The position numbers were made by a program, and so were the translations under genes. Below the pieces are notes generated by a model. The model made no database searches. It was not told where the DNA came from and saw only the letters and a list, made by a program, of their open reading frames with translations. From a virus, in IMG/VR virus record IMGVR_UViG_3300037484_000374, positions 106,952-170,951 of that record: a stretch of DNA of 64,000 nucleotides. One strand, given 5' to 3'. This document shows, one piece after another, positions 1-12,415 of this stretch (positions are counted from its first letter, which is position 1; the number at the start of each line of letters is the position of its first letter).

Positions 1-1
1 T

Positions 2-37
2 AAAGGGGAGAATCTACAAAGGTTTTTCCCTTTTTTT
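2..37 (+). terminator. Rho-independent terminator-like hairpin just upstream of tRNA array 1
   Basis: AAAGGGGAGAATCT-acaa-AGGTTTTTCCCTTT followed by a T run. Confidence 0.7.
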
Positions 38-50
38 GTGGAAAAAATAT

Positions 51-126
51 GGGGTGGTGGTTCAGTAGTAGAGCACAAGGTTGAAGTCCTTGGATAGCGG
101 GGCGCGATTCTCCTCACCCCTGACCA
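51..126 (+). tRNA. tRNA-Phe(GAA), atypical T-loop
   Basis: Acceptor GGGGTGG/TCACCCC; anticodon arm CAAGG-TT GAA GT-CCTTG; T-loop CGCGATT; ends ACCA. Confidence 0.75.
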
Positions 127-140
127 AAAATTGAATATAT

Positions 141-223
141 AGATTGTACCGCCATGGGGCAAACTGCTTTTGAACGGCATGGGTGGGTGAAACCACGGGG
201 TTCGATTCCTCTACTTTCTGCCA
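141..223 (+). tRNA. tRNA-Ser(TGA), divergent
   Basis: TGCT-TT TGA AC-GGCA arm; long variable arm; GGTTCGATTCC; GCCA end; two acceptor-stem mismatches. Confidence 0.65.
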
Positions 224-230
224 AGAATAT

Positions 231-317
231 AGTAGATTGACCGAGCGGCAAGGTATCTGGTTGCTAACCAGCAGTAAGGGTGACACCTCACAGGTTCGAA
301 TCCTGTATCTACTGCCA
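231..317 (+). tRNA. tRNA-Ser(GCT)
   Basis: AGTAGAT/ATCTACT acceptor; CTGG-TT GCT AA-CCAG; long variable arm; GCCA. Confidence 0.9.
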
Positions 318-330
318 GAAATAAATGTAT

Positions 331-404
331 GGGGGTGTAACTTAGTGGCAAAGTAACTGGCTTTTAACCAGTAAACGGGGGTTCGATTCTCCTCACCCCC
401 ACCA
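331..404 (+). tRNA. tRNA-Lys(TTT)
   Basis: GGGGGTG/CACCCCC; ACTGG-CT TTT AA-CCAGT; TTCGATT; ACCA. Confidence 0.92.
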
Positions 405-475
405 AAAATTGAATAGTAACACTAACTATACACGGTAATATTACCAATGTTACAATGCAAGGGGGGGGGGGTACC

Positions 476-694
476 ATGAATAAGTTTTTTAGAAAACAGT
501 TGGAAAAGTTGAAATCAGGTCGAGGTAAAAGTCTGACTTATAATAATAAACATGGAAAGTTTAGAGTAAAATATTGTGATGGTGTAAAATCCAAACCAAT
601 GTTTTATGATATCGCAAAAAGATTCGCTGGCATATTCAATGGGAAAGTATTTTACATTGAAGATGAGGATGAATATCAGCGGTATGCGTTATAA
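476..694 (+). CDS. hypothetical protein
   Basis: ORF between tRNAs; poly-G tract at the RBS position. Confidence 0.6.
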   Translation: MNKFFRKQLEKLKSGRGKSLTYNNKHGKFRVKYCDGVKSKPMFYDIAKRFAGIFNGKVFYIEDEDEYQRYAL

Positions 695-707
695 TTGAGA
701 ATGATAT

Positions 708-784
708 ACTCCTATGGTGTTAATTGGTAAGCATGTGTGGCTGTTAACCACAGGGCCAATGTTCGAGTCCTCGTAGGAGTGCCA
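708..784 (+). tRNA. tRNA-Asn(GTT), weak T-stem
   Basis: ACTCCTA/TAGGAGT; TGTGG-CT GTT AA-CCACA; TTCGAGT; GCCA. Confidence 0.8.
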
Positions 785-792
785 AAATTAAT

Positions 793-866
793 GTATCTCT
801 GGTGAAATGGTATCATGATTGGCTCCAACCCAATCGTTGTGGGTTCAAGTCCTACGAGGTACGCCA
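793..866 (+). tRNA. tRNA-Trp(CCA)
   Basis: GTATCTC/GAGGTAC; ATTGG-CT CCA AC-CCAAT; TTCAAGT; GCCA. Confidence 0.9.
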
Positions 867-878
867 TTAAAAATATAC

Positions 879-952
879 GCTAAGAGTGGTTCTGGGAACC
901 GATTTCTCTTGTAAGGAAGTTTTTGGGGGTTCGACTCCTCCTCTTAGCTCCA
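879..952 (+). tRNA. tRNA-Thr(TGT)
   Basis: GCTAAGA/TCTTAGC; CT TGT AA loop; GGTTCGACTCC; TCCA. Confidence 0.85.
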
Positions 953-1008
953 AGTTTACACACAACAAGTATTGTGGTATAATGATAGTAAATATAATAG
1001 GAGATGTA

Positions 1009-1470
1009 ATGACAAGATTTTTCAAAAGCATTAAAAATTTAATCAGGTGGTTTCCAGTAATATGGAATGACAAAGATTGGGACAACGCTTATATCTATAC
1101 GATATTACATAAGAAAATATCAAATATGGAAGATTTTTTCAGAACCGATGCTATTATCAGTGAAGCAGACAGAGTTGCCGATGAGATCAACACCGTGGTT
1201 TTAGCTCTCCAAAGACTTGTCAAAGATGAGTATGAAGAAATAGCCTTTGAAGACCATGATAAGAAATGGGGTAAAATAGGAATGATAGAAGCACCATGGA
1301 AGATGCACAAGTTTAACTTCACCAGAAAAAATGTCACCACAGAAGAGGATAAGAAAATAGAAAAGCAGGAAATGCTTGCTTGTTTTGATAGAGTAGAAGC
1401 ATATAGACAGTGTGATATTGATCTTGTATGTGATACCATGAAAGAAAAAATTCAGGAATGGTGGGATTGA
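1009..1470 (+). CDS. hypothetical phage protein
   Basis: ORF with AGGAGA RBS and an upstream TTTACA..TGGTATAAT promoter; start trimmed to avoid tRNA-Thr. Confidence 0.75.
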   Translation: MTRFFKSIKNLIRWFPVIWNDKDWDNAYIYTILHKKISNMEDFFRTDAIISEADRVADEINTVVLALQRLVKDEYEEIAFEDHDKKWGKIGMIEAPWKMHKFNFTRKNVTTEEDKKIEKQEMLACFDRVEAYRQCDIDLVCDTMKEKIQEWWD

Positions 1471-1478
1471 AATAATAA

Positions 1479-1554
1479 CTGGGTGTAGCTGAGTTTGGTT
1501 TAGCACGGGCCTTGGGAGTCCGAGACGGAGGTTCAAATCCTCTCATCCAGACCA
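1479..1554 (+). tRNA. tRNA-Pro(TGG)
   Basis: CTGGGTG/CATCCAG; CGGGC-CT TGG GA-GTCCG; TTCAAAT; ACCA. Confidence 0.9.
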
Positions 1555-1566
1555 TAAATTAAAATT

Positions 1567-1776
1567 ATGAAAAAAGATGAATCATTAATACCAGAAGGTG
1601 CTTATTGTTACACAATAATAAAAACACCTTGCAAAGAAACAAATTGGTGCTTGAGAATAAAACCATGTCCTTATTGGAAATTAATTTATGATTTTCCAGA
1701 ACAAATGAATGGATATTGTAAGTTCTTAAAAGAAGGTGATTGGACTCCAAAAGGTCTATCATTGTTATGTGAATAA
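1567..1776 (+). CDS. Cys-rich hypothetical protein, possibly C-terminally truncated
   Basis: ORF track; IPEGAYCY...CPYW...YCKFL pattern. Confidence 0.6.
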   Translation: MKKDESLIPEGAYCYTIIKTPCKETNWCLRIKPCPYWKLIYDFPEQMNGYCKFLKEGDWTPKGLSLLCE

Positions 1777-1794
1777 CCTTTGCGAGGTACGATA

Positions 1795-1968
1795 ATGAAC
1801 TCCCTAAAAAAGTTAAAAATGAAAAAGGTCAAGAATGTCCTTTCCTCAAAAGAGGATGTGAATAAAGTGCGCACCTCGCTGGAGCAAAAAACCTCTCAAG
1901 CCTTTGATGCGTTTGCCAAGTCGAAGCAAAAAGACCAGGAAATGGCACATTTGAAATATCTTGATTAA
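1795..1968 (+). CDS. hypothetical protein
   Basis: GAGG RBS; short basic ORF. Confidence 0.5.
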   Translation: MNSLKKLKMKKVKNVLSSKEDVNKVRTSLEQKTSQAFDAFAKSKQKDQEMAHLKYLD

Positions 1969-2059
1969 AACTAACCTATTCTTGCTTATAAGCCCGGACA
2001 TCTGAAATTAAGATTCTGGCTTTTTTTAATGCCATATTGAATGATTGAGACTCTGGCAA

Positions 2060-2096
2060 GTCACATAAGCGAGTTCGATTCTCGTCAACACCGCCA
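2060..2096 (+). pseudogene. 3' half of a tRNA (Asp-like)
   Basis: GTCAC followed by T-arm GCGAG-TTCGATT-CTCGT and CAACACC-GCCA; no matching 5' acceptor strand. Confidence 0.6.
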
Positions 2097-2398
2097 AGTT
2101 AAAAAAATATATGAATGATCTTATCAGAATAATACAAGAAAATCTTACACATAGTCTACTAAAACCTGAATATAGAAAAATCAACGAAAATAGCCCAACG
2201 TATGGTCATTGTTATGCTGCCTCGGAATTTTTATGTAATTTAGAAGGAAAAGATTAAAGTTTCTTCCCCTATCATGGTAGAGATGAAAATTAGGTTGACA
2301 TACCATAAACACTATGGTATAGTAGGTTATATAAGAATTTTAAATGGTCATAAAGACCAAAAGGGGTCATAAAGACCAAAACTGTAAGGAGAAGATGT

Positions 2399-3253
2399 AT
2401 GAAAAATTTGTTAAGTGTATTGGTAGCATTGGTTGCATTTCTTGCTGTCAGTACAATCCCACAGGTATCTAGGGCATCAGATGACGTTACGATAATGTTT
2501 GAGATCGGGATCGGTATTGGTAAATCTGGAAAGGTTGCCAAGAAAGTTGACGCTGATCCACGACTCTGTAAGAATCGTGACACTGGTCGGTTGATTTATT
2601 TTGGTGTTCGTGCAACATATGATGATGTTGAACTTCACCTTGCGCGTTGGCAGGGTGACGCTGACTGTTTGACATGTGAGCGTGACGCCTGGGCCTTGGG
2701 CCTTGGATATCAAATAACCAGTGATGATCATGGAACAATGGATTATGACGATGTGTATACCACATGGACTCATGGACTTGCCTATACATGGGGTGAGGAA
2801 AAAAGATACGGGGGTGAGGAAAAAGAAAATACTAACTGGCGTTTACATGGTAACTTCCAGATTTTTAACCGCCTTGCTGTTGGGGTTCAGACAGAAGATG
2901 CAATGCTTGAAGTTGCCTTGAATCGTTATGGTTCATTTGATCCTAACCACGGTGAAACATTCTTAACCGCTGGTCTTGGTCTTAACTTTTTGGAAGACAC
3001 AACACATGTACCAATAGCCACACCTGAAAAAGAAATCGTTTACATCGAAGGGTCAGCGGGTAAAGACGGAACCGATGGTGAAGATGGTGAAGATGGTGAA
3101 GATGGTGAAGATGGTGAAGATGGTGAAGATGGTGAAGATGGTGAAGATGGTGAAGATGGTGAAGATGGTAACAAGGGTAATAATGGAAACGGTAACGGCT
3201 CAGAAGGTGCTTCCCCAGGTCAGGGTAATGGGGCCAACGATGATGAAAATTAA
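2399..3253 (+). CDS. exported beta-barrel-like protein (PagL-like C-terminal pattern) with acidic collagen-like (GED)n tail
   Basis: Signal peptide; alternating amphipathic strands; FQIFNRLAVGV..LEV....PNHGETFLTAGLGLNF; G-E-D repeats. Confidence 0.6.
   Translation: MKNLLSVLVALVAFLAVSTIPQVSRASDDVTIMFEIGIGIGKSGKVAKKVDADPRLCKNRDTGRLIYFGVRATYDDVELHLARWQGDADCLTCERDAWALGLGYQITSDDHGTMDYDDVYTTWTHGLAYTWGEEKRYGGEEKENTNWRLHGNFQIFNRLAVGVQTEDAMLEVALNRYGSFDPNHGETFLTAGLGLNFLEDTTHVPIATPEKEIVYIEGSAGKDGTDGEDGEDGEDGEDGEDGEDGEDGEDGEDGEDGNKGNNGNGNGSEGASPGQGNGANDDEN
3074..3169 (+). repeat. 9-bp tandem repeat GATGGTGAA, about 10.7 copies (Asp-Gly-Glu)
   Basis: Read directly from the sequence. Confidence 0.97.
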
Positions 3254-3287
3254 TTTATAAAGTAAAATAGATACATAAGAAATCAAA

Positions 3288-3328
3288 AAAAAGGGGGGGG
3301 GGGCATAGAAATATGTTCCTCTTTTTTT
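3288..3328 (+). terminator. intrinsic terminator
   Basis: poly-G-CAT-agaaat-ATGTTCCTC followed by T7. Confidence 0.6.
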
Positions 3329-3401
3329 GATTTAATCACTTGACTTTTTCTACAGATGTGATATAATACATTATAAGATAAATTCAGTTGAGGGATACAC
3401 C

Positions 3402-3641
3402 ATGTTACATAAGAAAACAATGTTATTAAGAACCAAAGATAATACTACCACTGTTAGAATAGGACTTTTCGGTAATAACTTCAACCCCGATGCTTGGTAT
3501 CTCTTGAATAAAAGAAATGAGCCAGATGTGATTGTTAATACATCACCAGCAGGGGCCAGCAAGATCGTTCTCTCATACAAGACATTGGAAGGAAAGAGAG
3601 TCTATGATATCTATAAAGTTACATCAATAATAGATATTTGA
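3402..3641 (+). CDS. hypothetical protein
   Basis: ORF after a TTGACT..TATAAT promoter and GAGGG RBS. Confidence 0.65.
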   Translation: MLHKKTMLLRTKDNTTTVRIGLFGNNFNPDAWYLLNKRNEPDVIVNTSPAGASKIVLSYKTLEGKRVYDIYKVTSIIDI

Positions 3642-3680
3642 GAAAAAATTAAAATAATTTGAGAAAAAATAGAAAACTTA

Positions 3681-3688
3681 TATAAATA
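3681..3688 (+). promoter_or_regulatory. T4-type late promoter TATAAATA
   Basis: Exact consensus. Other copies at 7702, 8926, 13736, 21607 (+) and 37562, 44615, 45956, 54857, 56909, 61276 (-), each just upstream of an RBS or gene. Confidence 0.75.
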
Positions 3689-3709
3689 GTAATAGGAGAA
3701 TTAAATTCA

Positions 3710-3793
3710 ATGACACTCAGACAGACATATACTCTTTTAGAACAACGCATACTTGTGATAGGTATTGTTGTGTATTGTGGAGAAATACCGTAA
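3710..3793 (+). CDS. 27-aa leader peptide MTLRQTYTLLEQRILVIGIVVYCGEIP (putative attenuator leader)
   Basis: AGGAGA RBS and late promoter upstream; the stop codon lies in the antiterminator strand. Confidence 0.7.
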   Translation: MTLRQTYTLLEQRILVIGIVVYCGEIP

Positions 3794-3857
3794 GACTGGG
3801 GGATAAAATAACGATCACAGAACCCCTTGGTCTTAAAAAAGATTAGGGGGTTTTTTT
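3791..3857 (+). promoter_or_regulatory. mutually exclusive antiterminator (3791-3802/3824-3835) and terminator (3821-3857)
   Basis: TAAGACTGGGGG pairs over 12 nt with CCCTTGGTCTTA; AACCCCTTGGTCT pairs with AGATTAGGGGGTT, then a U run. Confidence 0.75.
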
Positions 3858-3863
3858 ATTTGA

Positions 3864-3891
3864 TTGACACAGCTTAAAAATATGGTATAAT
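3864..3891 (+). promoter_or_regulatory. sigma70-like early promoter
   Basis: TTGACA...TGGTATAAT. Similar promoters near 2296, 3340, 17365, 39173, 39652, 43719 (+) and 47460, 51498, 52463 (-). Confidence 0.75.
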
Positions 3892-4025
3892 AAAATATAG
3901 GTAAAAGATTAAACTTTATTTAACAGGCGAGTAGGATGTCAGTAACAATCATAGTAGTAACAGTTGTTGTAGAAATAGCATTAGTATTGTTGTTTAAAGA
4001 GAAAAACTAGGTCTTTGTTCTATGT

Positions 4026-4083
4026 TGAGGTGTGTGGCTTGTAATCACAATATATTGGGGCAGAGTATCCATCATCTCAACCA
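4026..4083 (+). ncRNA. D-armless tRNA-like element (TGT anticodon)
   Basis: TGAGGTG/CATCTCA-ACCA acceptor directly followed by TGTGG-CT TGT AA-TCACA; degenerate T-arm. Confidence 0.45.
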
Positions 4084-4095
4084 AAGAAATAATGA

Positions 4096-4170
4096 AGGGG
4101 CATAACACAATGGTAGTGTACATGACTTTGAATCGTGATATGGTGGGTTCGATTCCCCCTGCCCCCGCCA
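4096..4170 (+). tRNA. tRNA-Gln(TTG)
   Basis: CATGA-CT TTG AA-TCGTG; GGTTCGATTCC; GCCA. Confidence 0.88.
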
Positions 4171-4208
4171 AAAATAAATGTGTATTTTTATTATAAATAC
4201 TAATAATA

Positions 4209-4286
4209 TGGGAGAGTGGTGGAACTGGTATACATACTTCGCTTAGACCGAAGGTTTTAGGGGTTCGACTCCCCTCTCTCATACCA
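4209..4286 (+). tRNA. tRNA-Leu(TAG) with short variable region
   Basis: Leu-type D arm GTGGAACTGGTATACA; CTTCG-CT TAG AC-CGAAG; GGTTCGACTCC; ACCA. Confidence 0.8.
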
Positions 4287-4310
4287 GATTAATCATCGTG
4301 GAGATTAACC

Positions 4311-4484
4311 ATGTGCATATTTAAATGTAGTTGTGGAAGCAGGAAAGTTAAGATAGAATCTTTTTGTAATTGTCATTATGTAATCTGTATTAATTGTAAA
4401 AATACTACAGAGAATTGTACGAGTCCAGAAATGGCAGTATTGAAATGGAACCAAAAAATTGATAGTATAAGTCATAGTAAATAA
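4311..4484 (+). CDS. Lar-like small zinc-ribbon protein
   Basis: CxCGS...CxxC...A..KWN pattern; GGAG RBS; 57 aa, below the ORF-track cutoff. Confidence 0.6.
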   Translation: MCIFKCSCGSRKVKIESFCNCHYVICINCKNTTENCTSPEMAVLKWNQKIDSISHSK

Positions 4485-4501
4485 CCAAAAGGGAGATAGA
4501 T

Positions 4502-4891
4502 ATGAAGAAATTGTTTTTAGTATTGATAATATGTTTGAGTTTGTTGTTACCGGTAGTTGCATCAGCAAACATGGAGTGTTTGGGTGAACCGCTCACGGAT
4601 GGCGAAACCAATATAGTTAATATGGTTCACGAACTTCTTACAGCATACGGTGCTTATATAATACCACTTGCAAACGCAGTTAAACCGGAAGAGGTTTTGG
4701 CAATGACTCGACCCGATCTTCAAAGATTGGCAACCCAATTAACAGAAGAGGGTCTTTTACAAGTGGTTTCAGGTCAGATTGGTTATTACGAAGAGGGTGA
4801 TGTTTGGATGTTCGTGATTGTCGAACCAACACTGGATAAGGAAGCGGCATGTATTATCAGTGTAATGTTAAGAGAGAAGACAGCAAAATGA
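4502..4891 (+). CDS. secreted hypothetical protein (paralog 1)
   Basis: MKK + hydrophobic + ASA signal peptide. Confidence 0.75.
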   Translation: MKKLFLVLIICLSLLLPVVASANMECLGEPLTDGETNIVNMVHELLTAYGAYIIPLANAVKPEEVLAMTRPDLQRLATQLTEEGLLQVVSGQIGYYEEGDVWMFVIVEPTLDKEAACIISVMLREKTAK

Positions 4892-5283
4892 AAATTTTAT
4901 TCAGAATATTGATTGTATTAATGTTTTTGTCAGTACCAATGAGCGCACAGGCAAAAAAAGAATGTACCAGTTGTGGAACGCTGGGTGTTACCGAGCAGAT
5001 TACGGTAAATGATATTAACAAACAAGTCACTGAGTATTGTAGTGAAAATATGGGCAAGATGAAAACGTGGCCAGTACATAGGGCCATCAAAAAAGCCGAG
5101 AAGGGGATCAATTTGATCGTCACACGGTTTATCGACAAGGGGTACGTTGATGGTATCACTGTCGAGTTTAAAGTCGTTAGCGATGAGCTATGGCCCGATA
5201 GTAAAAAAGTTTATGTAGAATTAACCATTGTTCCAAATAATAAGAAACCGTCAAGGTGTGTTATCACGGGAAGGTTACAATGA
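4888..5283 (+). CDS. secreted hypothetical protein (paralog 2)
   Basis: Signal peptide ending AQA; ATGA overlap with the previous gene. Confidence 0.75.
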   Translation: MKILFRILIVLMFLSVPMSAQAKKECTSCGTLGVTEQITVNDINKQVTEYCSENMGKMKTWPVHRAIKKAEKGINLIVTRFIDKGYVDGITVEFKVVSDELWPDSKKVYVELTIVPNNKKPSRCVITGRLQ

Positions 5284-5654
5284 TGAGAATTGTATATATA
5301 CTCTTAGCACTGATGGTTTTTATGTCACCATCGTTTGAAAAACTTAGCGCATATTCTGGGATGAGTCAACAAACCAAGAACCAAGGAAGCAATACGAATG
5401 TTGTGGAGGTAAAAAAAGAAATTCGAGCATGGTGTGAATATTATTCAGAAAAAATACCATCAAGGTTAACGTTAATATTATTACAAAGTTCACTGGATGG
5501 TTATTGTAACTTTGCAGTTCGTGAGAGGATGGTATATTGGGTTGATAGTGTGGCATTTATTAAGAATAATGAGATTTGGGTAAAGACCATTATCATCCCT
5601 GTAAAGGGTGGAGAAAAAATAGAGTTTACGTTAAGACTCGTAACGAAGTGTTAA
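5280..5654 (+). CDS. secreted hypothetical protein (paralog 3)
   Basis: Signal peptide; ATGA overlap with the previous gene. Confidence 0.75.
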   Translation: MMRIVYILLALMVFMSPSFEKLSAYSGMSQQTKNQGSNTNVVEVKKEIRAWCEYYSEKIPSRLTLILLQSSLDGYCNFAVRERMVYWVDSVAFIKNNEIWVKTIIIPVKGGEKIEFTLRLVTKC

Positions 5655-5664
5655 TATAAAATAT

Positions 5665-5754
5665 GGAGAGTGCAAATAAGGCTGGATTGGTCTGGCGGTT
5701 GGCTGTAAACCAACCCCTGATAGACATGGGGTTCGAATCCTTCACTCCCCACCA
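5665..5754 (+). tRNA. tRNA-Tyr(GTA)
   Basis: GTTGG-CT GTA AA-CCAAC; long variable region; TTCGAAT; ACCA. Confidence 0.82.
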
Positions 5755-5767
5755 AATAGGAACAAGT

Positions 5768-5929
5768 ATGGATATTGAAAAATGTGAATGTGGAAGTAAG
5801 AATGTTATACCAGAACTTTTTTGCGGTAGATCATATATCTATTGTAAGGATTGTGAAAAAACCACCGGCGAACATATATTACTCGATGAGGCCATAGGTG
5901 AATGGAATAAAATGTCCAGAGTGTGGTGA
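5768..5929 (+). CDS. Lar-like small zinc-ribbon protein
   Basis: CECGS...CKDC...AIGEWN; paralog of 4311-4484. Confidence 0.6.
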   Translation: MDIEKCECGSKNVIPELFCGRSYIYCKDCEKTTGEHILLDEAIGEWNKMSRVW

Positions 5930-6086
5930 TGAAGCAGTACAGGCATTAGTCAATGGAAGACCGGCCATGGTTTGTGAGAGTTGTATCAATGGAGTTATGA
6001 CACTTACACAATGCCAATATTGTAATGAATATAGATACAAGAGACAACAAAAAGTTTGTGGCTGTAGGGAAACGATGAACGAATAA
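5898..6086 (+). CDS. zinc-finger hypothetical protein
   Basis: Multiple CxxC motifs. Confidence 0.55.
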   Translation: MNGIKCPECGDEAVQALVNGRPAMVCESCINGVMTLTQCQYCNEYRYKRQQKVCGCRETMNE

Positions 6087-6188
6087 TACATGTACCATCC
6101 AGACAATAGGTTTCTGGCAATGAGCTTACGAAACTCGTTTGATAGTCTCAACTCCTATATGGTACCCCAATTTAAAAAAGGATTCACA

Positions 6189-6470
6189 ATGCCTATAAAT
6201 TTGGAAATTGAAGATTATGAAAGTGTTTTAATTTTAGCAGATGATGAAAATGGGAATTTAGTCTGGGAAGTATTGATGCCCGAAATTGATGAAAATGTAG
6301 ACAGTGAAGGGGTTTCAATACCAACATTAATGTGCGCCGCTGTTGCAACCAGAATGAAAGAAGATAAGGGGTTTGTTGATGATATGATAAACTGGTTTGA
6401 TTGTTTCGTTTGTACTGAACCACCACCAGTTAAAGGTAGAATGAAAACAAGTTTGAGGAGAGTAAAATAA
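6189..6470 (+). CDS. hypothetical protein
   Basis: ORF with AAGGA RBS at the internal Met. Confidence 0.6.
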   Translation: MPINLEIEDYESVLILADDENGNLVWEVLMPEIDENVDSEGVSIPTLMCAAVATRMKEDKGFVDDMINWFDCFVCTEPPPVKGRMKTSLRRVK

Positions 6471-6476
6471 TTTTAT

Positions 6477-6551
6477 GCTCTGATAGTTTAACGGTAGAAC
6501 GGACAACTTATAGTTGTTTAATGGCCGGTTCGACTCCACCTCAGAGCACCA
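6477..6551 (+). tRNA. tRNA-Ile(TAT)
   Basis: GCTCTGA/TCAGAGC; GACAA-CT TAT AG-TTGTT; GGTTCGACTCC; ACCA. Confidence 0.82.
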
Positions 6552-6673
6552 TTAAGGTTTACGGTATGATAAAAATATGTTTGAAATGTGATCAAAAAAA
6601 GGATATATCTGAATTTCATAAAAATTGCCATGCTGAATATCATCATTTGAAAAGATGTAAAAATTGAAAATAA

Positions 6674-6753
6674 GCGGGTATGATAAGCCAAGGGCATTGG
6701 TAAACTGGACACCAGCCAGTAAATAAGGGGTTCGACTCCCCCTTCCCGCTCCA
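6674..6753 (+). tRNA. tRNA-Gly-like with ACC anticodon and non-canonical loop
   Basis: GCGGG/CCCGC-TCCA Gly-type acceptor; ACTGG-AC ACC AG-CCAGT. Confidence 0.65.
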
Positions 6754-6765
6754 AAAGTTTTATAT

Positions 6766-6842
6766 AGTTCCGTAGCTTAATTGGCCAAGCATCTCTTTTA
6801 CACGGAGAAGTCATAAGAGTTCGAGTCTCTTCGGAACCACCA
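6766..6842 (+). tRNA. tRNA-Val(TAC)
   Basis: TCTCT-TT TAC AC-GGAGA; GAGTTCGAGTCTC; ACCA. Confidence 0.88.
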
Positions 6843-6852
6843 ATATTAATAT

Positions 6853-6929
6853 AGCGGTGTAGCTCAGTGGTAGAGCCGTGGTCCTGATAAGGCACAGACT
6901 TAAAGTTCGATTCTTTTTCACCGCTACCA
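6853..6929 (+). tRNA. tRNA-Ile(GAT)
   Basis: AGCGGTG/CACCGCT; CT GAT AA loop; TTCGATT; ACCA. Confidence 0.85.
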
Positions 6930-6948
6930 TTAAATAAAGGATGTTAAT

Positions 6949-7221
6949 ATGGATGAATTTGTTAAAGTATTTTGTAGGGTTGTAAAGATGCATTGGTACA
7001 CTTGGAAAGCAAAATATATTCTGGATTCTATTTTGGATGTATGTCGATGGATAATTTATATTGGTTTCCTTCCAAAGACATTAATTAACTGGACTGTTGG
7101 TTGTCATTTGGCAAACTCCAAAAGATTAAGGAAGGTTATTATAGAATCTGATTTTACAGACATCATAAAATTTGTAGATCGGGCTGATAGAGCCTATAGA
7201 AACCTTTACATCGAAGATTAA
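6949..7221 (+). CDS. hypothetical protein (paralog of 7231-7494)
   Basis: AAGGA RBS; similar N-terminus and length to the next gene. Confidence 0.6.
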   Translation: MDEFVKVFCRVVKMHWYTWKAKYILDSILDVCRWIIYIGFLPKTLINWTVGCHLANSKRLRKVIIESDFTDIIKFVDRADRAYRNLYIED

Positions 7222-7230
7222 AGGAACAAA

Positions 7231-7494
7231 ATGAGTAAGCTAAAAATTGTTTTGAGGATAGTAAGATTGTACAGATGTACTTTTATAGGAAAGTATTACA
7301 TACCGTTTTTAAATAAAATCATGGATTGTTTTGTGTTTCTTGGAATTATCCACTACGGATTTCACAACCATATTGTTGATAAGATAAAGGAAAACACACA
7401 AAGAATAATTGAGATCGCCATAGAAGGTGGTAACCATGACCTTGCTGATATCGCTGATGATCAGAATAAAACAGCAGACGATTTATATATTTAA
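7231..7494 (+). CDS. hypothetical protein
   Basis: AAGGA RBS; ORF track. Confidence 0.6.
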   Translation: MSKLKIVLRIVRLYRCTFIGKYYIPFLNKIMDCFVFLGIIHYGFHNHIVDKIKENTQRIIEIAIEGGNHDLADIADDQNKTADDLYI

Positions 7495-7500
7495 ATGTGA

Positions 7501-7573
7501 CGCAAAGTAGACCGGTGTCTGGTGAAGTCTCATAAGCTCTCACGCTGGGGTTCAATTCCCCACTTTGCATCCA
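7501..7573 (+). tRNA. tRNA-Met(CAT), initiator-like (C1:A72 mismatch)
   Basis: CGCAAAG/CTTTGCA; CT CAT AA loop; GGTTCAATTCC; TCCA. Confidence 0.75.
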
Positions 7574-7584
7574 AATAATTAAAT

Positions 7585-7658
7585 GGGGATATAGTTTAGT
7601 GGCAGAACAGCTGTCTTTCTAACAGCCAGCAGGGGTTCGATTCCCCTTATCCCTACCA
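7585..7658 (+). tRNA. tRNA-Glu(TTC) with U37
   Basis: GCTGT-CT TTC TA-ACAGC; GGTTCGATTCC; ACCA. Confidence 0.8.
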
Positions 7659-7729
7659 AAAAAATTTATTTTGTATTTTAAATATTTTTCCATAAAATCC
7701 ATATAAATACCAATACAAGGAGAAATAAT

Positions 7730-8839
7730 ATGGATGCATATTGGATAAACCCACAAGGAAAAATATTACAATTGACAGGGGGGACACATATAAAGATAGT
7801 TTTTGATAATCCAAATAAGTTTGGATTATCAAAACAATCAATTCAAAAAATATATGATAAATATAACGAAAATTATGGAATAGAAGGAAAGGCGAGAGAT
7901 GAAATTATCACAAAGATCATCCAACGAGGCTATGTTCGTATCAGAGAATACAAGAACAGGTGGAGCGTTCAGGTATGGAAGATCAATAATAAAGTAAATG
8001 ATACATTATGGGTATGGGCAAAGACCGTATTACCCAAAGCAAGTGATAAATTTGCTGATATAGACATCACAGAAATTGGTGGAAGGAAAGGTTTAATGAG
8101 AACATCTTTATCAAAATTGGCAAGTGGTGGAAGTATTTCAGAAGAAGAAAAAGAATTGGCAGAACGGCATGTTCGTTTTGTAGACTCGATTGATGATTTT
8201 GATGATTATGTTCCAGAGACAGAAGAAGAAATATCAGAAAAATATATAGTCAATGAATCATCATTGTCAAGGCTATGGAAACACAATACAGAACACGATT
8301 GTGGGGCTTTAACGGCATGGCGTAGAGCAGAGGGTTGTGGTGAGGGTAGATTATATACACATAAGGAAAACCAACAACGTAATAAATCACTCAGAGCAAA
8401 ATTAATGGCCATGGGCTATTCTGTAACTGTGATATCTGGAAAATACCCAGAGGGTGGTAAAACATCCAAGGAAGATAGTTATTTTGTCGTTGACATGGAT
8501 GACGATGGACAGCTTGAAAAGGATTTACTGAAACTCGGAGAAATCTTTGAGCAGGATTCCATATTGTTTGTTCCAAAGGGTGCTGTTGAAAGAAAACAGA
8601 AAGCACTTTTAATAGGAACAAATCATTGTCCTAATGGATTCCCTGGGTATGGTAAAAAACTTGAATTTGAAAAGGGCAAATTTGGTGTTAATAGCCCTAT
8701 ATATACATCATATGTTAATGGCCGACCATTTATATTTGAAACTCTTGAGATGACAACACTCCACAGGCAAGGTAATGGTATGGGGGTCTGGGCAACATAT
8801 CTCATAGCAAAAAAAGGTTGGCAAGACATAGACGTATAA
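7730..8839 (+). CDS. late-expressed two-domain phage protein (NESSLSRL motif)
   Basis: Late promoter at 7702; AGGAGA RBS; Glu-rich linker; terminator at 8857-8903. Confidence 0.75.
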   Translation: MDAYWINPQGKILQLTGGTHIKIVFDNPNKFGLSKQSIQKIYDKYNENYGIEGKARDEIITKIIQRGYVRIREYKNRWSVQVWKINNKVNDTLWVWAKTVLPKASDKFADIDITEIGGRKGLMRTSLSKLASGGSISEEEKELAERHVRFVDSIDDFDDYVPETEEEISEKYIVNESSLSRLWKHNTEHDCGALTAWRRAEGCGEGRLYTHKENQQRNKSLRAKLMAMGYSVTVISGKYPEGGKTSKEDSYFVVDMDDDGQLEKDLLKLGEIFEQDSILFVPKGAVERKQKALLIGTNHCPNGFPGYGKKLEFEKGKFGVNSPIYTSYVNGRPFIFETLEMTTLHRQGNGMGVWATYLIAKKGWQDIDV

Positions 8840-8953
8840 AAATAAGAACACTTTGAAAACCCCTCTTTTTCTTTGATATCAAGGAATTGGGGTTTTTCTT
8901 TTTTGTCGTTATTTTAAATTTTTTATATAAATACTATTAAGGGAGTAACGAAA

Positions 8954-9235
8954 ATGGAGATTTATGAAAAATATCTTCTTGAAACCTTACCGGATGGCTG
9001 GACAAAAGACAGCGTTCAAAAGTTTGCCAAGACGATAGCGGCAAGCACTGACAAGGAAGGTTTCTTCAAGAAGTGAGTGGAGAGAATGTCACAGCATTTG
9101 GATGATGCTGAAATGGTTAACGGTCTTTGTGCCAGTATGCTTGATAAAGCTAAAGGCAGTACATATTGGAGAGGTTCACATAAGACAGCGGCGCAGGCAA
9201 AGAAGGATGTAGCGGCACACCAAAATGTAAAATGA
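8954..9235 (+). CDS. 93-aa protein with in-frame TGA at codon 41 (candidate selenoprotein or nonsense pseudogene)
   Basis: Late promoter at 8926; GGGAG RBS; GFFKK*VERM...GLCASMLD...YWRG; hairpin at 9092-9110. Confidence 0.6.
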
Positions 9236-9256
9236 TGCAATTAATGCAGAGGAAAT

Positions 9257-9466
9257 ATGATACAGGCAAAAATAATCAAGACAGAGACTGAGTACGACCA
9301 TGCGCTGCTCCGCATTGATGAGTTAATGAATGCGACCCCAGACACGCCGGAAGGTGATGAGCTTGAGTTGCTTATTACCCTGATTGAGCTTTATGAGGCG
9401 AAAGAGTATGCCATTGACCTGCCGGATGCGGTCAGTGCTATAAAATTCCGTATGGAGCAACAGTAA
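9257..9466 (+). CDS. HigA-type antitoxin N-terminal fragment (HTH missing)
   Basis: IIKTETEYDHAL.RIDELM.A.PDTPEGDELELL.TLIE.YE...LPD.V.AIKFRMEQ, then stop. Confidence 0.75.
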   Translation: MIQAKIIKTETEYDHALLRIDELMNATPDTPEGDELELLITLIELYEAKEYAIDLPDAVSAIKFRMEQQ

Positions 9467-9664
9467 AACAAAATTTTTTCATCAAAATATAAGAAAGAAT
9501 TAAGCAAAATAGAACGAATAGTATTATTGAAAAATGGTGTGATGATCATGGTATGAAATATAGCAATACAAAATATCACATCAGAATGGGAAACAATTAT
9601 AGATGATATACTATAAAAAAACAGTAAAATATAAATTGTAAAATATGTATAAAAAGGATGATAA

Positions 9665-10213
9665 ATGGTAAATGGTAAAGCAAAAGGAAGTGGATATGAG
9701 AGACAAATATGTAAACATCTCAGTATTTGGATACAAGGTACCGAAAAACCATATCTTTTTTGGAGACAACCGGCAAGTGGTGGATTGTCAACTATAGACG
9801 GACGTAATAGTGAAAACTTATCAGGAGATATAAGGTCTATTAATACAACTTCGGAATGGTTTTGTGGAATATATAGTGTTGAGATAAAGACCGGTTATCC
9901 TGATGCATCACTTGATAAGTTTTTAAAATATAATAAGTCTGACCCCCTTAGAGCGTTCTGGGTTCAGTGCATAGATGATGCAAATCTTTCCGAGAAAAGA
10001 CCATTGCTCATCTATAAGAAGAAAGGGATGCCTACCCCTTGGGTTGGTATTGATGAAAATGTAAAGAAGATTCTGGCCAAAGAATTAAAAGGTTTGAGGT
10101 TTGTGATGTTACATTGGGCAGAAGATTTACCGGACACATATCTTTATGAGTATAAGGAATTCTTTGATACGATAACACCCGAATTAATGAAGAAAAGGTT
10201 TAATATAAAATGA
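9665..10213 (+). CDS. Holliday junction resolvase-like PD-(D/E)XK nuclease
   Basis: NGKAKGSGYER...SGG...GDI...VEIK...W.Q. Confidence 0.75.
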   Translation: MVNGKAKGSGYERQICKHLSIWIQGTEKPYLFWRQPASGGLSTIDGRNSENLSGDIRSINTTSEWFCGIYSVEIKTGYPDASLDKFLKYNKSDPLRAFWVQCIDDANLSEKRPLLIYKKKGMPTPWVGIDENVKKILAKELKGLRFVMLHWAEDLPDTYLYEYKEFFDTITPELMKKRFNIK

Positions 10214-10455
10214 ATATCCAGATAACACCAACAGAATTTGAAAATCTAATGTTGTTATACATTGAAAATATAACAATGAAAAGATCGGAAGCGGTTGGTG
10301 ACAAGATGGAAACCTTTACAAGTGAAGTAGTAGATAAGGCTATTGATAACCTGTTACTTCAAATGCAAACAAATTTCTCCCCGAAAGAGAAGCTAAACGC
10401 AAAACGTTTAATCTCTGAAATAACATCGGGTAAAAACATAATTATAATAACATAA
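10210..10455 (+). CDS. hypothetical protein
   Basis: ORF in operon; N-terminus resembles the next gene. Confidence 0.65.
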   Translation: MNIQITPTEFENLMLLYIENITMKRSEAVGDKMETFTSEVVDKAIDNLLLQMQTNFSPKEKLNAKRLISEITSGKNIIIIT

Positions 10456-10459
10456 AACT

Positions 10460-10912
10460 ATGAGCAAAATAACAGTAACACCAGATGAGTTTGTTGATTT
10501 CGTAATATCGTTTTTGTTAAATAAAATGATACACAAGAAAGAGATGTTGGGTGATAACGAGAGATTTAACGATATCGTGGAAAGAATGGAGAGAGGTGGT
10601 TTGAAATCACATCTTCTACAAGCATTTCTGAAATTCGATTCTCAACAAAGGATGCAGTTTAAAAGAATAAAAGATGTATTTGAAGGGAAAGATAATGTCA
10701 GAAATACTATTGATATTCTCCCAGACAGAACATCCAAAGAAAAAGCTTTCCGTAACAAGGGTGATAACAGTTTTCTTAATGAAATTATTAAAAGAGTAAT
10801 AAAAGAGGCGAGGAGCTACAGGATCAGAACAGGTTGTCTTATTTCAAACGACAAAATGGAAAGGTTGATTGACAAAGTGTTAACAGAAGAGTATAATAAG
10901 GAGAGTAAATAA
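10460..10912 (+). CDS. hypothetical protein
   Basis: ORF in operon. Confidence 0.7.
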   Translation: MSKITVTPDEFVDFVISFLLNKMIHKKEMLGDNERFNDIVERMERGGLKSHLLQAFLKFDSQQRMQFKRIKDVFEGKDNVRNTIDILPDRTSKEKAFRNKGDNSFLNEIIKRVIKEARSYRIRTGCLISNDKMERLIDKVLTEEYNKESK

Positions 10913-11256
10913 TGGGTGCATTTACAGATGGAACAACACCAGCAGATTCAGCGGCGACTGACAAGGGAGTATCAACAGGTACGGTGGCAACAGGAGAAAC
11001 ACCAGAAGGTTTCGCAACAGATGTTGAGGGGTGTAGAGCAGATGCCGAAGTAAAGGTTGGAACCGAAAATTATCCTGTATTTGATGTTGATGATAAAGAG
11101 TTTTATCAGAATATGAAGTACGGACGAAAAAGATTACGATTCGGTGCTGAGTCAAAAGCTGGAACGTATCTAAGGGGAACCAGATATAAAAGACCATTTT
11201 TTGTTCGTCATACTGATCCAAATGGTAAGGCGTATATAAGAAAAATTGAAAAATAA
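10912..11256 (+). CDS. hypothetical protein
   Basis: AGGAG RBS; ORF in operon. Confidence 0.7.
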   Translation: MGAFTDGTTPADSAATDKGVSTGTVATGETPEGFATDVEGCRADAEVKVGTENYPVFDVDDKEFYQNMKYGRKRLRFGAESKAGTYLRGTRYKRPFFVRHTDPNGKAYIRKIEK

Positions 11257-11482
11257 TCTCAAACGACAGGTGAGCAAAATACCTAAAAGAAAAAAGAAGG
11301 TCTATGGTCATTGTGAACTTTGTAAAAAAAACTTTGATAGTAGTAAAATATATAAAGGTGTTTGTGAAGGTTGTTTAGATGGTATATTAGATACATGGGA
11401 AGATATGTATCACAAAAGTGCCTATGGTGATAAACTGAAACGTGTAGTATAAATTGTGATTTAAAATAAACAGGTATATAAT

Positions 11483-12415
11483 ATGTCTAAGAAAATTGTG
11501 GTTGTTGGTTCAGGTGCAGAGCACTTGGGTATACGCAGTGATATACCTATTGTAAATAATAAGTTTGCAAACGGTGAAATAAATTTTCAATACAAGAAAA
11601 GTGTGCGTGGTAAAATTGTAAATATAATTCAATCATTTCCAGATACCAACAACAATATAATGGAATTGATGTTGATGATCGATGCCGCCAAGAGAGCGGG
11701 AGCATCAGCGGTTAATGTTCTTTTAACCATATTCCCATACTCAAGACAGGACAAGAAACACGATAGTGGTACTCCCATATCAGCCAAAGTTGTATGTGAA
11801 ATGTTATGTTCTGTCAGACCATCTAGAGTAGTTACAATAGACTTACATGCCGCACAAATACAGGGGTTCATGCCTAACAAGGTTGGGTTTGATCATATAA
11901 ATTCTTGTGCGTTCCTCGCATACCATCTCAAAAAACAAATAGACGATATAGAAGATTGGGTGTTTTGTTCACCGGACATTGGGGCAGTTAAAGGAACTCT
12001 AAAACTCGGTGGTTTATGTGGTGCTCAAGATTATGTAATCATCAACAAGACCAGAAAGAAAATAAATGAAGTTGATTCAATGGATGTTATCGGTGAAGTG
12101 GGTGGTAGAAAGGTGTTGATATTTGATGATATCATTGATACGGCTGGAACCCTTGAGTGTGCTATGAAGAATATATTCAAACTTGGGGCTTCTGATGTGG
12201 CCGCTATAGCCACTCATGGGGTGTTTTCTGGACCAGCATTTGATAGATTAAAAGGTCATAAGGTATATGTTACAAATACTTTACCGATCAGTGAAGATCG
12301 ACCATCAACGTTAACGGTTTTTAACATTGATAAATTTGTACTTAATATAATAAACAGGCTTAATAACGATGAGATGTTAAGTCCTTTATTTGAAAAATGG
12401 GAGGAAGTAAAATGA
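11483..12415 (+). CDS. prs: ribose-phosphate pyrophosphokinase
   Basis: FANGE, PYSRQDK, DLHAAQIQGF, SPDIGA, DDIIDTAGT and THGVFS motifs. Confidence 0.93.
   Translation: MSKKIVVVGSGAEHLGIRSDIPIVNNKFANGEINFQYKKSVRGKIVNIIQSFPDTNNNIMELMLMIDAAKRAGASAVNVLLTIFPYSRQDKKHDSGTPISAKVVCEMLCSVRPSRVVTIDLHAAQIQGFMPNKVGFDHINSCAFLAYHLKKQIDDIEDWVFCSPDIGAVKGTLKLGGLCGAQDYVIINKTRKKINEVDSMDVIGEVGGRKVLIFDDIIDTAGTLECAMKNIFKLGASDVAAIATHGVFSGPAFDRLKGHKVYVTNTLPISEDRPSTLTVFNIDKFVLNIINRLNNDEMLSPLFEKWEEVK

Follow-up and report, generated by a model that had tools for sequence, protein, structure and literature searches.

A candidate leader-peptide attenuator before the tRNA arrays of a T4-like phage

Attenuators that read a leader peptide

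In the enterobacterial leader attenuators (ilvL of ilvGMEDA, thrL, trpL, hisL, leuL and pheL), a short ORF follows the promoter and a terminator precedes the regulated genes, with an antiterminator that shares one arm of the terminator and is masked when a terminating ribosome sits at the stop codon. The phage locus described here resembles these systems in design and, like the multivalent leaders of the ilvL and thrL type, samples several amino acids per leader. Unlike them, it precedes tRNA genes, whereas the enterobacterial leaders regulate biosynthetic enzymes; it is viral, is served by a gp55-type late promoter, and carries a bypass promoter past the terminator. Each amino acid is represented by one or few codons instead of runs, and the leaders of related phages hold 19-20 amino-acid kinds. 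The locus comprises three segments, with no superattenuation helix seen; zero translation should also give read-through.

The pheST attenuator of E. coli (pheM leader) controls phenylalanyl-tRNA synthetase by decoding of cognate codons. The logic is the same, a leader-peptide attenuator acting on a component of the decoding machinery; unlike the phage locus, pheST is bacterial, responds to Phe alone by way of a run of its codons, and regulates a synthetase protein, not tRNA genes. T-box riboswitches share the terminator/antiterminator logic in a leader RNA that relays tRNA status to tRNA-related genes, but they bind uncharged tRNA directly via a specifier codon and the T-box sequence, without translation. 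A T-box or other known riboswitch was considered here and set aside: Rfam gave no cis-regulatory match in positions 1-12000 at E values up to 1, bar chance-level hits elsewhere.

In the Caulobacter phage phiCbK, the 45-residue ORF gp083 (S10, T8, A8, L5, P4, K3) is followed by an annotated terminator (49745-49769) and then by tRNA genes for Pro, Pro, Lys, Lys, Leu (three) and Ser (two). The present locus likewise has a mini-ORF in which the amino acids of the following tRNAs abound, together with a terminator. The likeness is one of gene layout between unrelated lineages (Dolichocephalovirinae and T4-like, respectively), and the present locus is set apart by a stop codon inside the antiterminator arm, a T4-type late promoter and relatives' leaders with nearly all 20 amino acids. 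A full-text literature search, incomplete in coverage and not proof of absence, found no published description of leader-peptide attenuation of tRNA genes. To our knowledge, the regulation of phage tRNA genes is largely unknown.

Anatomy of the unit before the second tRNA array

The window analysed here is a 64,000-nucleotide stretch of viral DNA (positions 106,952 to 170,951 of IMG/VR record IMGVR_UViG_3300037484_000374) from a T4-like phage, a distant relative of phage T4. It carries two tRNA arrays, and the unit before the second (unit 2) comprises the following features.

3645-3688, + strand: promoter block with the T4-type late promoter motif TATAAATA (3681-3688) at its 3' end; a second copy lies before unit 1
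3694-3699, + strand: Shine-Dalgarno element AGGAGA, 10 nt 5' of the leader 2 ATG, read from the sequence
3710-3793, + strand: predicted leader ORF 2, 27 codons plus TAA; product MTLRQTYTLLEQRILVIGIVVYCGEIP
3742-3771, + strand: hairpin within the leader 2 coding region, from minimum-free-energy and centroid folds
3791-3802, + strand: arm A, the antiterminator 5' arm, starting on the leader TAA
3819-3835, + strand: arm B, the shared arm; it is the terminator 5' arm, and 3824-3835 doubles as the antiterminator 3' arm
3839-3859, + strand: arm C, the terminator 3' arm and U run
3864-3891, + strand: sigma70-type promoter TTGACA-16-(TG)TATAAT, downstream of the terminator

The genome encodes a homologue of gp55, the T4 late sigma factor (36% identity, E 5e-15), which supports reading TATAAATA as a late promoter. 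An extended motif, consisting of a T-run and TATAAATA, is repeated 8-76 nt upstream of ORF starts. The promoter block is 88% identical over 56 nt to G000:106787-106841, upstream of leader 1 in the same record, and a 17-mer of the promoter used as a search pattern returned more than 100 unrelated contigs. A T4-like late start, about 6 nt past TATAAATA (about 3694-3696), would put the leader 2 Shine-Dalgarno element at the extreme 5' end of the RNA. The hairpin at 3742-3771 may act as a pause structure for RNA polymerase.

Arms A and B form 12 contiguous pairs, three of them G-U, with a dG of -14.5, and for as long as the terminator 3' arm is still to be transcribed, this pairing is the nascent RNA's minimum-free-energy fold. 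The terminator (3819-3854 plus U run) has a dG of -20.9 and a z-score of -4.7, and none of 200 shuffled sequences folded as well. We compared about 210 upstream 14-nt windows as partners of the terminator 5' arm, and the strongest pairing is that of the window which overlaps the stop codon (-15.7 against -9.2 kcal/mol for the next best); since this window outpairs all the others, the A:B pairing is above chance. When the RNA was masked up to 14 nt past the stop codon, mimicking a ribosome, the terminator was the sole remaining fold.

This anatomy had been proposed in a sequence-only reading of the same DNA, and all of its structural elements were recovered at the positions given. The late promoter placed at 3681 is the TATAAATA copy read at 3681-3688; the AGGAGA ribosome-binding site and the 27-codon ORF at 3710-3793 were both read, as were its three ATA codons, which match tRNA-Ile(UAU). 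The residues said to be absent from the leader (F, S, K, N, W and D) are all missing, together with A and H. The proposed antiterminator of 12 contiguous pairs taking in the TAA (3791-3802 with 3824-3835) reappeared pair for pair in the nascent-RNA fold, and the terminator stem and U run given as 3821-3857 folded here with slightly wider limits. Folding with a mask, as had been suggested, gave the terminator alone, and folding of the nascent RNA short of the terminator 3' arm gave the antiterminator. The sigma70-like promoter at 3864-3891, thought able to bypass the terminator, matches the consensus at 12 of 12 positions. The likeness drawn to attenuators of the ilv, thr and his type also fits: the antiterminator arm would be hidden by a ribosome that has reached the stop codon.

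Five marks of a leader-peptide attenuator are present: a leader ORF with a ribosome-binding site after a promoter, a terminator before the tRNA genes, a mutually exclusive helix, the appropriate ribosome-position geometry (as distinct from behaviour), and leader codons that bear on what the regulated genes produce, the codon-exact match being imperfect. We consider it probable that unit 2 is a ribosome-mediated (leader-peptide) transcription attenuator gating late-promoter transcription into array 2, and one of two such units.

Two leaders, two arrays and the leaders of related phages

The tRNA genes were called with ARAGORN and Rfam. Array 2 is interspersed with ORFs, and array 1 is preceded by a unit of its own (unit 1), whose leader lies just upstream of the window.

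G000:C1:106848-106925: predicted leader 1, product MKNTKTTSTSSKPSNPNHSDWPVYV
2-40, + strand: unit 1 terminator, before array 1
51-1554, + strand: array 1
51-121, + strand: tRNA-Phe(GAA), array 1, Rfam only
132-223, + strand: tRNA-Ser(UGA), array 1, found by ARAGORN only at a relaxed setting
231-317, + strand: tRNA-Ser(GCU), array 1
331-404, + strand: tRNA-Lys(UUU), array 1
708-784, + strand: tRNA-Asn(GUU), array 1
793-866, + strand: tRNA-Trp(CCA), array 1
879-952, + strand: tRNA-Thr(UGU), array 1
1479-1554, + strand: tRNA-Pro(UGG), array 1
4096-7658, + strand: array 2
4096-4170, + strand: tRNA-Gln(UUG), array 2
4210-4286, + strand: tRNA-Leu(UAG), array 2
6477-6551, + strand: tRNA-Ile(UAU), array 2
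6766-6842, + strand: tRNA-Val(UAC), array 2
6853-6929, + strand: tRNA-Ile(GAU), array 2
7501-7573, + strand: tRNA-Met(CAU), array 2
7585-7658, + strand: tRNA-Glu(UUC), array 2

Of the tRNAs that the sequence-only reading had listed behind leader 2, those for Gln, Leu, Ile(UAU), Val, Ile(GAU), Met and Glu held up. The candidate labelled T* (4026-4094) was rejected: the laxest ARAGORN setting returned nothing, Rfam gave no match, and its fold has a z-score of -1.5. Tyr (5664-5750) and Gly (6677-6752) were called by ARAGORN only at very relaxed settings and with non-canonical structures. Behind array 1, an Asp candidate at about 2026-2096 shows a T-loop motif only. Because three of the tRNA calls behind it are without tool support, the earlier count of 23 of 27 leader residues matching array 2 falls to 16 of 27 with supported tRNAs, or 18 of 27 if Tyr is accepted.

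Amino acids are shared out between the two leaders according to array. In leader 2, Q, L, I, V and E, the amino acids of supported array 2 tRNAs, make up 15 of the 26 non-start residues; three Thr and one Pro are retained, though tRNA-Thr and tRNA-Pro are in array 1. Leader 1 takes up amino acids that had been noted as missing from leader 2, and K, N, T, S, P and W, served by the array 1 tRNAs behind it, account for 19 of its 24 residues. It has no Phe, although tRNA-Phe heads array 1. Its TAG stop codon lies inside the antiterminator arm, and its A:B pairing (-7.9, second-best window) is weaker than that of the other units. Each leader holds 11-12 amino-acid kinds, split along the array boundary. 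The leader/array match scores 28. No division of the amino acids scores higher, and 2 of the 1716 possible ones attain this value (p=0.0012). Pairs of windows drawn at random from proteins do so with p=1e-5, and a Fisher test gives 1.4e-5. Across the 171-kb record we found 42 terminators and four candidate units, with TATAAATA upstream only in the two tRNA units. The split pair amounts to a natural experiment, in which leader content tracks array content.

A unit of the same kind stands before the tRNA array in eight related uncultured phages (G002, G003, L190, L205, L206, G028, L297 and L298). Its architecture is conserved and its sequence is not: the arm sequences differ, while the stop codon invariably lies within or adjoins the antiterminator arm, and the three arms co-vary. 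All nine other units (unit 1 and the eight relatives) have an ATG-started leader, with TATAAATA or CATAAATA upstream where the sequence extends far enough; in L206, the late motif is ahead of a 46-aa ORF that precedes the leader. A purine-rich Shine-Dalgarno-like element precedes the leader in all eight units inspected, and the terminators of the other units have dG values of -14 to -23.5. A TTGACA promoter occupies the equivalent place in relatives, and the block around it shows no change among the four aligned lineages of the L190 group and G028. One relative has an Rnl2-type RNA ligase, besides tRNAs, among the regulated genes.

Several routes to further relatives were followed. The CxxC protein that neighbours the unit in relatives is absent from the window's own record; its metagenome scan was seeded with a three-sequence alignment, an eight-sequence alignment being too diverged, and among cultured phages it has a single, distant match in Rhodobacter phage RcZahn. 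A blastn search of 3300-4300 against a collection of cultured phages gave no match, and the gene at 7730-8839, used as an anchor, found no relatives in viral contigs. Distant portal relatives (L192-L201), with only 1-4 tRNAs and several arrays cut by contig ends, show no visible unit. The NrdD relatives (L290-L293) have zero tRNAs and so give no second example of a split array.

These comparisons bear on whether the terminator is simply constitutive, shielding the tRNA arrays from late transcription, with the short ORF an unrelated micro-protein gene or a chance frame and A:B without regulatory role. The sigma70-type promoter behind the terminator could then supply all the tRNA transcription needed, and the K-P and R(H) positions conserved among the leaders could stem from a job done by the peptide itself; more generally, those positions leave room for a separate role of either the peptide or the local RNA sequence. 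Such a terminator would not account for the stop codon, which overlaps or abuts the best-pairing arm: the stop-codon window is the best partner of the terminator 5' arm in six of seven units (about 215 windows each). Nor would it account for the distances: in the seven units measured, the first base of the stop codon lies 0 to 9 nt past the start of the nascent hairpin 5' arm, and 65-76 nt separate the stop codon from the end of the U run. The three arms change together: between G028 and the L190 group, both sides have changed in three of eight A:B pairs and four of ten B:C pairs. The leaders, moreover, are only 11-58% identical to one another, yet keep 19-20 amino-acid kinds, and the unit is missing where distant homologues of the CxxC gene lie away from tRNAs. 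We give a constitutive terminator very little weight. The sequence-only reading had held that an absence of conservation or covariation in related phages would speak against attenuation; the opposite was found, with the architecture kept in eight phages and all three arms co-varying.

The leaders of the eight single-array relatives contain 19, 20, 20, 19, 19, 20, 19 and 20 amino-acid kinds in 36-43 residues. Under the null model, a sequence of 36-39 residues has at least 19 kinds with a probability of 1.6-5% and all 20 with a probability of 0.1-0.5%. Treating the leaders as independent draws was abandoned when an alignment showed them to be homologous, and for this reason we used a neutral-drift simulation that allows common ancestry, which gave 1e-5 or less for seven lineages all having at least 19 kinds. 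Distinct codons number 29-31 out of 35-36 (p 0.001-0.009). In L206 the leader covers 22 of the 23 tRNA species of the phage, in L190 16 of 17, and none of 20,000 random gene windows did as well. The enriched property is diversity, with nearly all 20 amino acids sampled regardless of phage-encoded tRNA; G002 has no Leu in its leader despite two tRNA-Leu genes. The proposal that leader content mirrors array content thus stood for the present phage, whose amino acids are split by array, and did not extend to the single-array relatives as codon-exact mirrors.

A general sensor of translation capacity would need no codon match: any global slowing or loss of translation would free arm A, be it from host defences that damage ribosomes or elongation factors, from a scarcity of free ribosomes in late infection or from lost transcription-translation coupling, and leader composition would be irrelevant or merely 'average'. 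A three-segment design reads through whenever no ribosome reaches the stop codon, as such a sensor would, and most amino acids are sampled by single codons. Enrichment for codons read by phage tRNAs was looked for and not supported, as their share in the leaders of single-array relatives is not above the background of ordinary genes; the near-complete leaders also contain amino acids with no detected phage tRNA (Ala, Gly and Trp in G003; Cys, Trp, Tyr and Val in G002). A capacity sensor leaves unexplained both the 19-20 kinds in eight diverged leaders and the division of this phage's leaders, with their 11-12 kinds, along the array line, and we think it unlikely.

A proposed switch and its meaning for phage tRNA supply

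Returning to the codon-reading attenuator, we infer that the leader is translated, and in which direction and on what physiological trigger the switch would work. RNA polymerase would start at the gp55-type late promoter and transcribe the leader. With fast translation of the 27 codons, the ribosome at the TAA would cover arm A (3791-3802), B would pair with C, and transcription would end on the U run without reaching the tRNA genes. If a scarce tRNA stalled the ribosome in roughly the first 22-23 codons, or if no ribosome loaded, A would pair with B, no terminator would form, and polymerase would read into the tRNA genes. The new tRNAs would then speed leader decoding and switch the unit off, a negative feedback. 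Early in infection, the sigma70-type promoter past the terminator would express the array unconditionally. The phage thus probably makes more tRNA only when ribosomes decode slowly. Unlike hisL and pheL, with their runs, the leaders sample each amino acid by one to five codons only, and the switch may therefore be rather insensitive to a mild shortage.

The same anatomy cannot separate uncharged from missing tRNA, and the known trp, his, thr and ilv attenuators work by amino-acid starvation. A unit of this kind would read tRNA charging, not abundance, and would couple tRNA synthesis to the host's amino-acid supply. The regulated genes, tRNAs and in one relative the RNA ligase, are a better fit to tRNA supply or repair; the feedback loop would presumably be futile under starvation, since extra tRNA is no remedy for a lack of amino acids. 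We hold this reading very improbable.

In the attenuator reading that we prefer, leader 1 would test K, N, T, S, P and W for array 1 and leader 2 would test Q, L, I, V and E for array 2, while relatives with a single large array would use one leader sampling 19-20 amino-acid kinds. We speculate that the units form a decoding homeostat, a proposal on which we are evenly divided: the ancestral leader would be a roll-call of nearly all 20 amino acids, such that loss of any tRNA family stalls the ribosome and opens late transcription of replacement tRNAs, and in the present phage, where the array is split, the sensor would have subfunctionalised into two array-specific leaders. Shutdown of the host genome might cause such a loss, as might defences that cleave tRNA, of the PrrC, PARIS or retron type.

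The purpose of phage tRNAs is debated between codon compensation and the replacement of tRNAs destroyed by host defences (eLife 2023, PMC10264068; Nature 2024, PMC11464382; Nat Commun 2024, PMC11555353). If an attenuator gates the arrays, the phage would gauge how fast decoding runs and provide tRNA as needed, and a textbook bacterial mechanism would reach both viruses and a kind of regulated gene new to it. The codon-matched reading predicts that the two units open under different tRNA depletions, and a unit could serve as a compact, programmable reporter of tRNA supply. A leader of 19-20 amino-acid kinds would follow a new principle of design, in that it senses a shortage in any family of amino acids and not in one alone.

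Anatomy of the unit ahead of the second tRNA array

Sequence evidence of several kinds places the source phage among the distant T4-like myoviruses. The portal protein shares ~30% identity with its RB49-type counterparts, a homologue of the T4 late sigma factor gp55 is encoded at G000:C1:74919-75242 of the whole record (36% identity over 109 residues, E 5e-15), and PHROG family matches of the phage's own proteins comprise portal, prohead protease, tail fibre and NrdD. The record is 170,951 bp long, with an estimated completeness of 71% and a G+C content of 35%, and the window is its final 64 kb. Two arrays, at window positions 51-1554 and 4096-7658, hold every tRNA gene detected in the record. 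Between them lies a 284-residue ORF (2399-3253) that starts like a signal peptide and ends in a long collagen-like (GED)n tail; its PHROG tail-fibre matches come from this repeat only.

A sequence-only reading had described an attenuator ahead of array 2 whose leader mirrors the tRNAs downstream. All of its structural elements are present in this unit (unit 2), including the antiterminator discussed below:

3681-3688, promoter motif TATAAATA, read in the sequence
3694-3699, AGGAGA, read in the sequence
3710-3793, leader 2 ORF, product MTLRQTYTLLEQRILVIGIVVYCGEIP
3819-3854, terminator and U run (dG -20.9, z -4.7)
3864-3891, perfect sigma70-type promoter, TTGACA-16-TG-TATAAT

In the nascent RNA, before the terminator 3' arm exists, the minimum-free-energy fold pairs 3791-3802 with 3824-3835 (12 pairs), a helix that begins on the leader 2 TAA. 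Masking of the stop codon plus 14 nt beyond it, to imitate a terminating ribosome, left the terminator as the sole fold. The terminator 5' arm was also paired with ~210 upstream 14-nt windows, of which the one overlapping the stop codon fits it best by a wide margin (-15.7 versus -9.2 kcal/mol for the runner-up). The anatomy is that of a classical three-segment leader-peptide attenuator, and the sequence-level features expected of one were found, with a hairpin at 3742-3771 inside the leader as a candidate polymerase pause structure; a T-box identity was rejected, Rfam showing no T-box or other cis-regulatory family at this site at E up to 1. A 24-codon hydrophobic ORF (3936-4010; MSVTIIVVTVVVEIALVLLFKEKN), with many I, V, L, T and E residues, separates the sigma70-type promoter from tRNA-Gln, and no terminator follows it; it could encode a small membrane peptide or provide a second test frame for early transcripts.

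Among the tRNAs that had been listed downstream, Gln, Leu, Ile(UAU), Val, Ile(GAU), Met and Glu are supported, 'T*' was rejected, having no tool support, and Tyr and Gly are non-canonical candidates that appear at very relaxed settings only. Because these three calls are unsupported or non-canonical, the leader 2 residues matching array 2 tRNAs, previously counted as 23 of 27, fall to 16 of 27 with supported tRNAs. The three calls apart, the original observation is real. The less canonical elements of the region are:

51-121, Phe(GAA), Rfam call only
132-223, Ser(UGA), ARAGORN at relaxed setting only
2026-2096, tRNA-like element, T-loop motif only
5664-5750, Tyr(GUA)-like element, canonical T-loop and CCA end, assigned no identity by ARAGORN
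6677-6752, Gly(ACC)-like element, without U33

Equivalent units in related phages

Relatives were found by three anchors: portal homologues (50-59% identical), a small CxxC protein and a ClpB-like gene. They yielded eight further units, in the uncultured phages G002, G003, L190 (duplicated as L202), L205, L206, G028, L297 and L298. Conservation and covariation in related phages, named as a check in the sequence-only reading, were both found. All eight units keep the same order of parts, namely promoter motif, 36-43-codon leader, stop codon, terminator with U run, and tRNA array. The motif is TATAAATA or CATAAATA where the sequence extends far enough; the L298 contig begins partway through it, and in L206 a 46-aa ORF intervenes between motif and leader. 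The leader stop codon (TAG, TAA or TGA) falls within or immediately beside the segment complementary to the terminator 5' arm, and in all seven units measured it lies 30-39 nt from that arm and 65-76 nt from the U-run end. A TTGACA promoter follows the terminator in the six units read downstream.

The arm sequences themselves vary among lineages (GTAGGTGGTTT, ATGTAAATGG, TAGTGGTCT, GAATGTGACC), and the antiterminator 5' arm (A), the shared terminator 5' arm (B) and the terminator 3' arm (C) co-vary. Between G028 and the L190 group, A/B/C change jointly from GTGGTC/GACCAC/GTGGTC to GTGACC/GGTCAC/GTGACC, with double-sided changes at 3 of 8 pairs in helix A:B and 4 of 10 in helix B:C. As a negative control, no unit was found next to distant CxxC-protein homologues that do not adjoin tRNA genes, and none was seen in portal relatives with only 1-4 tRNAs, several of whose arrays are truncated at contig ends.

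Several features neighbour these units. The conserved CxxC protein (~104 residues with CxxC...CxxC motifs; retrieved loci L186 2763-3077, L187 1664-1978, L190 9998-10294 and L289 1618-1926) is invariably encoded, in the relatives, behind the attenuator and tRNA-Arg(ACG); it has no Pfam or PHROG family, and the window's own record lacks it. A gene for a ClpB-like AAA+ chaperone precedes the attenuator in the relatives checked (L206 7185-9377; L190, ending near 9527; L212; L214): it is the immediate upstream neighbour in L190, is separated from the unit by a single 46-aa ORF in L206 and lies ~2.4 kb ahead of it in G002. In G003 (L187 1954-2937), a T4 Rnl2-type RNA ligase (Pfam RNA_ligase and T4_Rnl2_C) is encoded just behind the attenuator, within the tRNA array region, consistent with a tRNA repair or supply theme. 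The block TCTTTGAAAATTRAATATTGACAAAATGAAA behind the terminator is almost invariant in four lineages with strongly diverged leaders (alignment A3, columns ~243-297; L190 9840-9875 and equivalents) and resembles an early promoter, together with an upstream element, under strong constraint.

Amino-acid content of the leaders

The eight single-array leaders, of 36-43 residues each, contain 19, 20, 20, 19, 19, 20, 19 and 20 kinds of amino acid. For 36-39-residue windows of this phage's proteins, at least 19 kinds are expected with a probability of 1.6-3.1%, and the full set of 20 with one of 0.08-0.23%; among 210 small ORFs of similar length, two had 19 kinds and none had 20. Because the relatives' leaders are homologous (pairwise identity 11-58%, with K-P and R(H) positions nearly invariant), they are not independent draws. 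A neutral-drift simulation that started from a 20-kind ancestor and retained 50-60% of positions gave a probability of at least 19 kinds of 0.13-0.20 per lineage, and hence 1e-5 or less for all seven lineages. The invariant positions could reflect a ribosome-pausing peptide motif or an RNA-level constraint.

These leaders use 29-31 distinct codons out of 35-36 (p 0.001-0.009), with each Leu, Arg, Ser and Ile box recurrently represented by one codon. Of the phage tRNA species, the leader covers 22 of 23 in L206 and 16 of 17 in L190, unmatched among 20,000 random gene windows; coverage is 21 of 25 (p=0.02) for G003 and 16 of 21, short of significance, for G002. No enrichment for codons read by the phage tRNAs was found in the relatives, and their leaders include amino acids without any detected phage tRNA. 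Given this and their high diversity, the relatives' leaders are best regarded as sampling almost every amino acid rather than mirroring the arrays exactly.

In the window's phage the content is divided between two leaders. As a whole-genome search with the unit 2 region showed, the promoter block recurs just ahead of the window (88% identity over 56 nt), where it is followed by the counterpart serving array 1 (unit 1):

G000:106848-106925 (whole record), leader 1 ORF, 25 codons, product MKNTKTTSTSSKPSNPNHSDWPVYV, downstream of the promoter-block copy
Window 2-33, terminator, ending ~14 nt ahead of tRNA-Phe, the first gene of array 1

The leader 1 TAG falls within a segment complementary to the terminator 5' arm. 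K, N, T, S, P and W, the amino acids of six array 1 tRNA species, account for 19 of its 24 non-start residues, and both Ser codon boxes occur in it, in line with the two Ser tRNAs of array 1. We scored the partition over 13 amino acids as residues matching a leader's own array minus those matching the other. The observed score, 28, is the maximum among 1716 possible splits (reached by 2, p=0.0012) and was reached by 1 in 100,000 random protein-window pairs from the same phage. Both strands of the 171-kb record hold 42 terminator-like sites but only four candidate units, and only the two tRNA units have TATAAATA upstream.

Leaders 1 and 2 contain 11 and 12 amino-acid kinds, divided by array with almost none in common. 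Leader 2 also shares the position of the relatives' unit (attenuator, then sigma70 promoter, then tRNA-Gln), and its N-terminus, MTLRQTY, resembles their M-x-R-Q-L-T-T, a likeness that is suggestive only. Together, this division and these shared features fit subfunctionalisation of the leaders after the array split.

Predicted switching and comparison with known systems

A ribosome reaching the stop codon in time would cover arm A, so that B pairs with C and transcription terminates. Were it stalled in about the first 22-23 codons, or never loaded, A would capture B and the polymerase would enter the tRNA genes. The two helices are of comparable stability (A:B -12 to -23, B:C -14 to -21 kcal/mol), and therefore kinetics would decide which forms. 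The sigma70-type promoter past the terminator would give unconditional early expression; later, at peak structural-protein demand and when host tRNAs are no longer replaced, conditional expression from the gp55-type late promoter would come on top. We infer leader translation, the direction of the switch and its trigger. In published work, tRNAs of phage origin are able to stand in for host tRNAs that defence nucleases have cleaved (PMC10264068, PMC11464382, PMC11555353); with the Rnl2-type ligase behind the G003 attenuator, this makes tRNA loss a plausible trigger, with no particular nuclease implicated.

We likened the unit to the multivalent ilv and thr leaders. Unlike these, its regulated genes are tRNAs, its setting is viral and late, it samples codons singly rather than in runs, and its relatives bear leaders with nearly all 20 amino acids. 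No account of tRNA genes under leader-peptide control turned up in the full-text literature searched. The predicted function of the units before the tRNA arrays, leader-peptide attenuation, is supported by their conservation, covariation and composition statistics.

The cultured Caulobacter phage phiCbK offers a parallel: behind a 45-residue ORF, gp083 (S10, T8, A8, L5, P4, K3), come first an annotated terminator and next the tRNAs for Pro, Pro, Lys, Lys, Leu (three) and Ser (two). gp083 is rich in S, L, P and K, the amino acids of the tRNAs behind it, and the region (JX100813 46500-53000) has three annotated rho-independent terminators, each directly ahead of a tRNA block. phiCbK may thus be an experimental system for such units.
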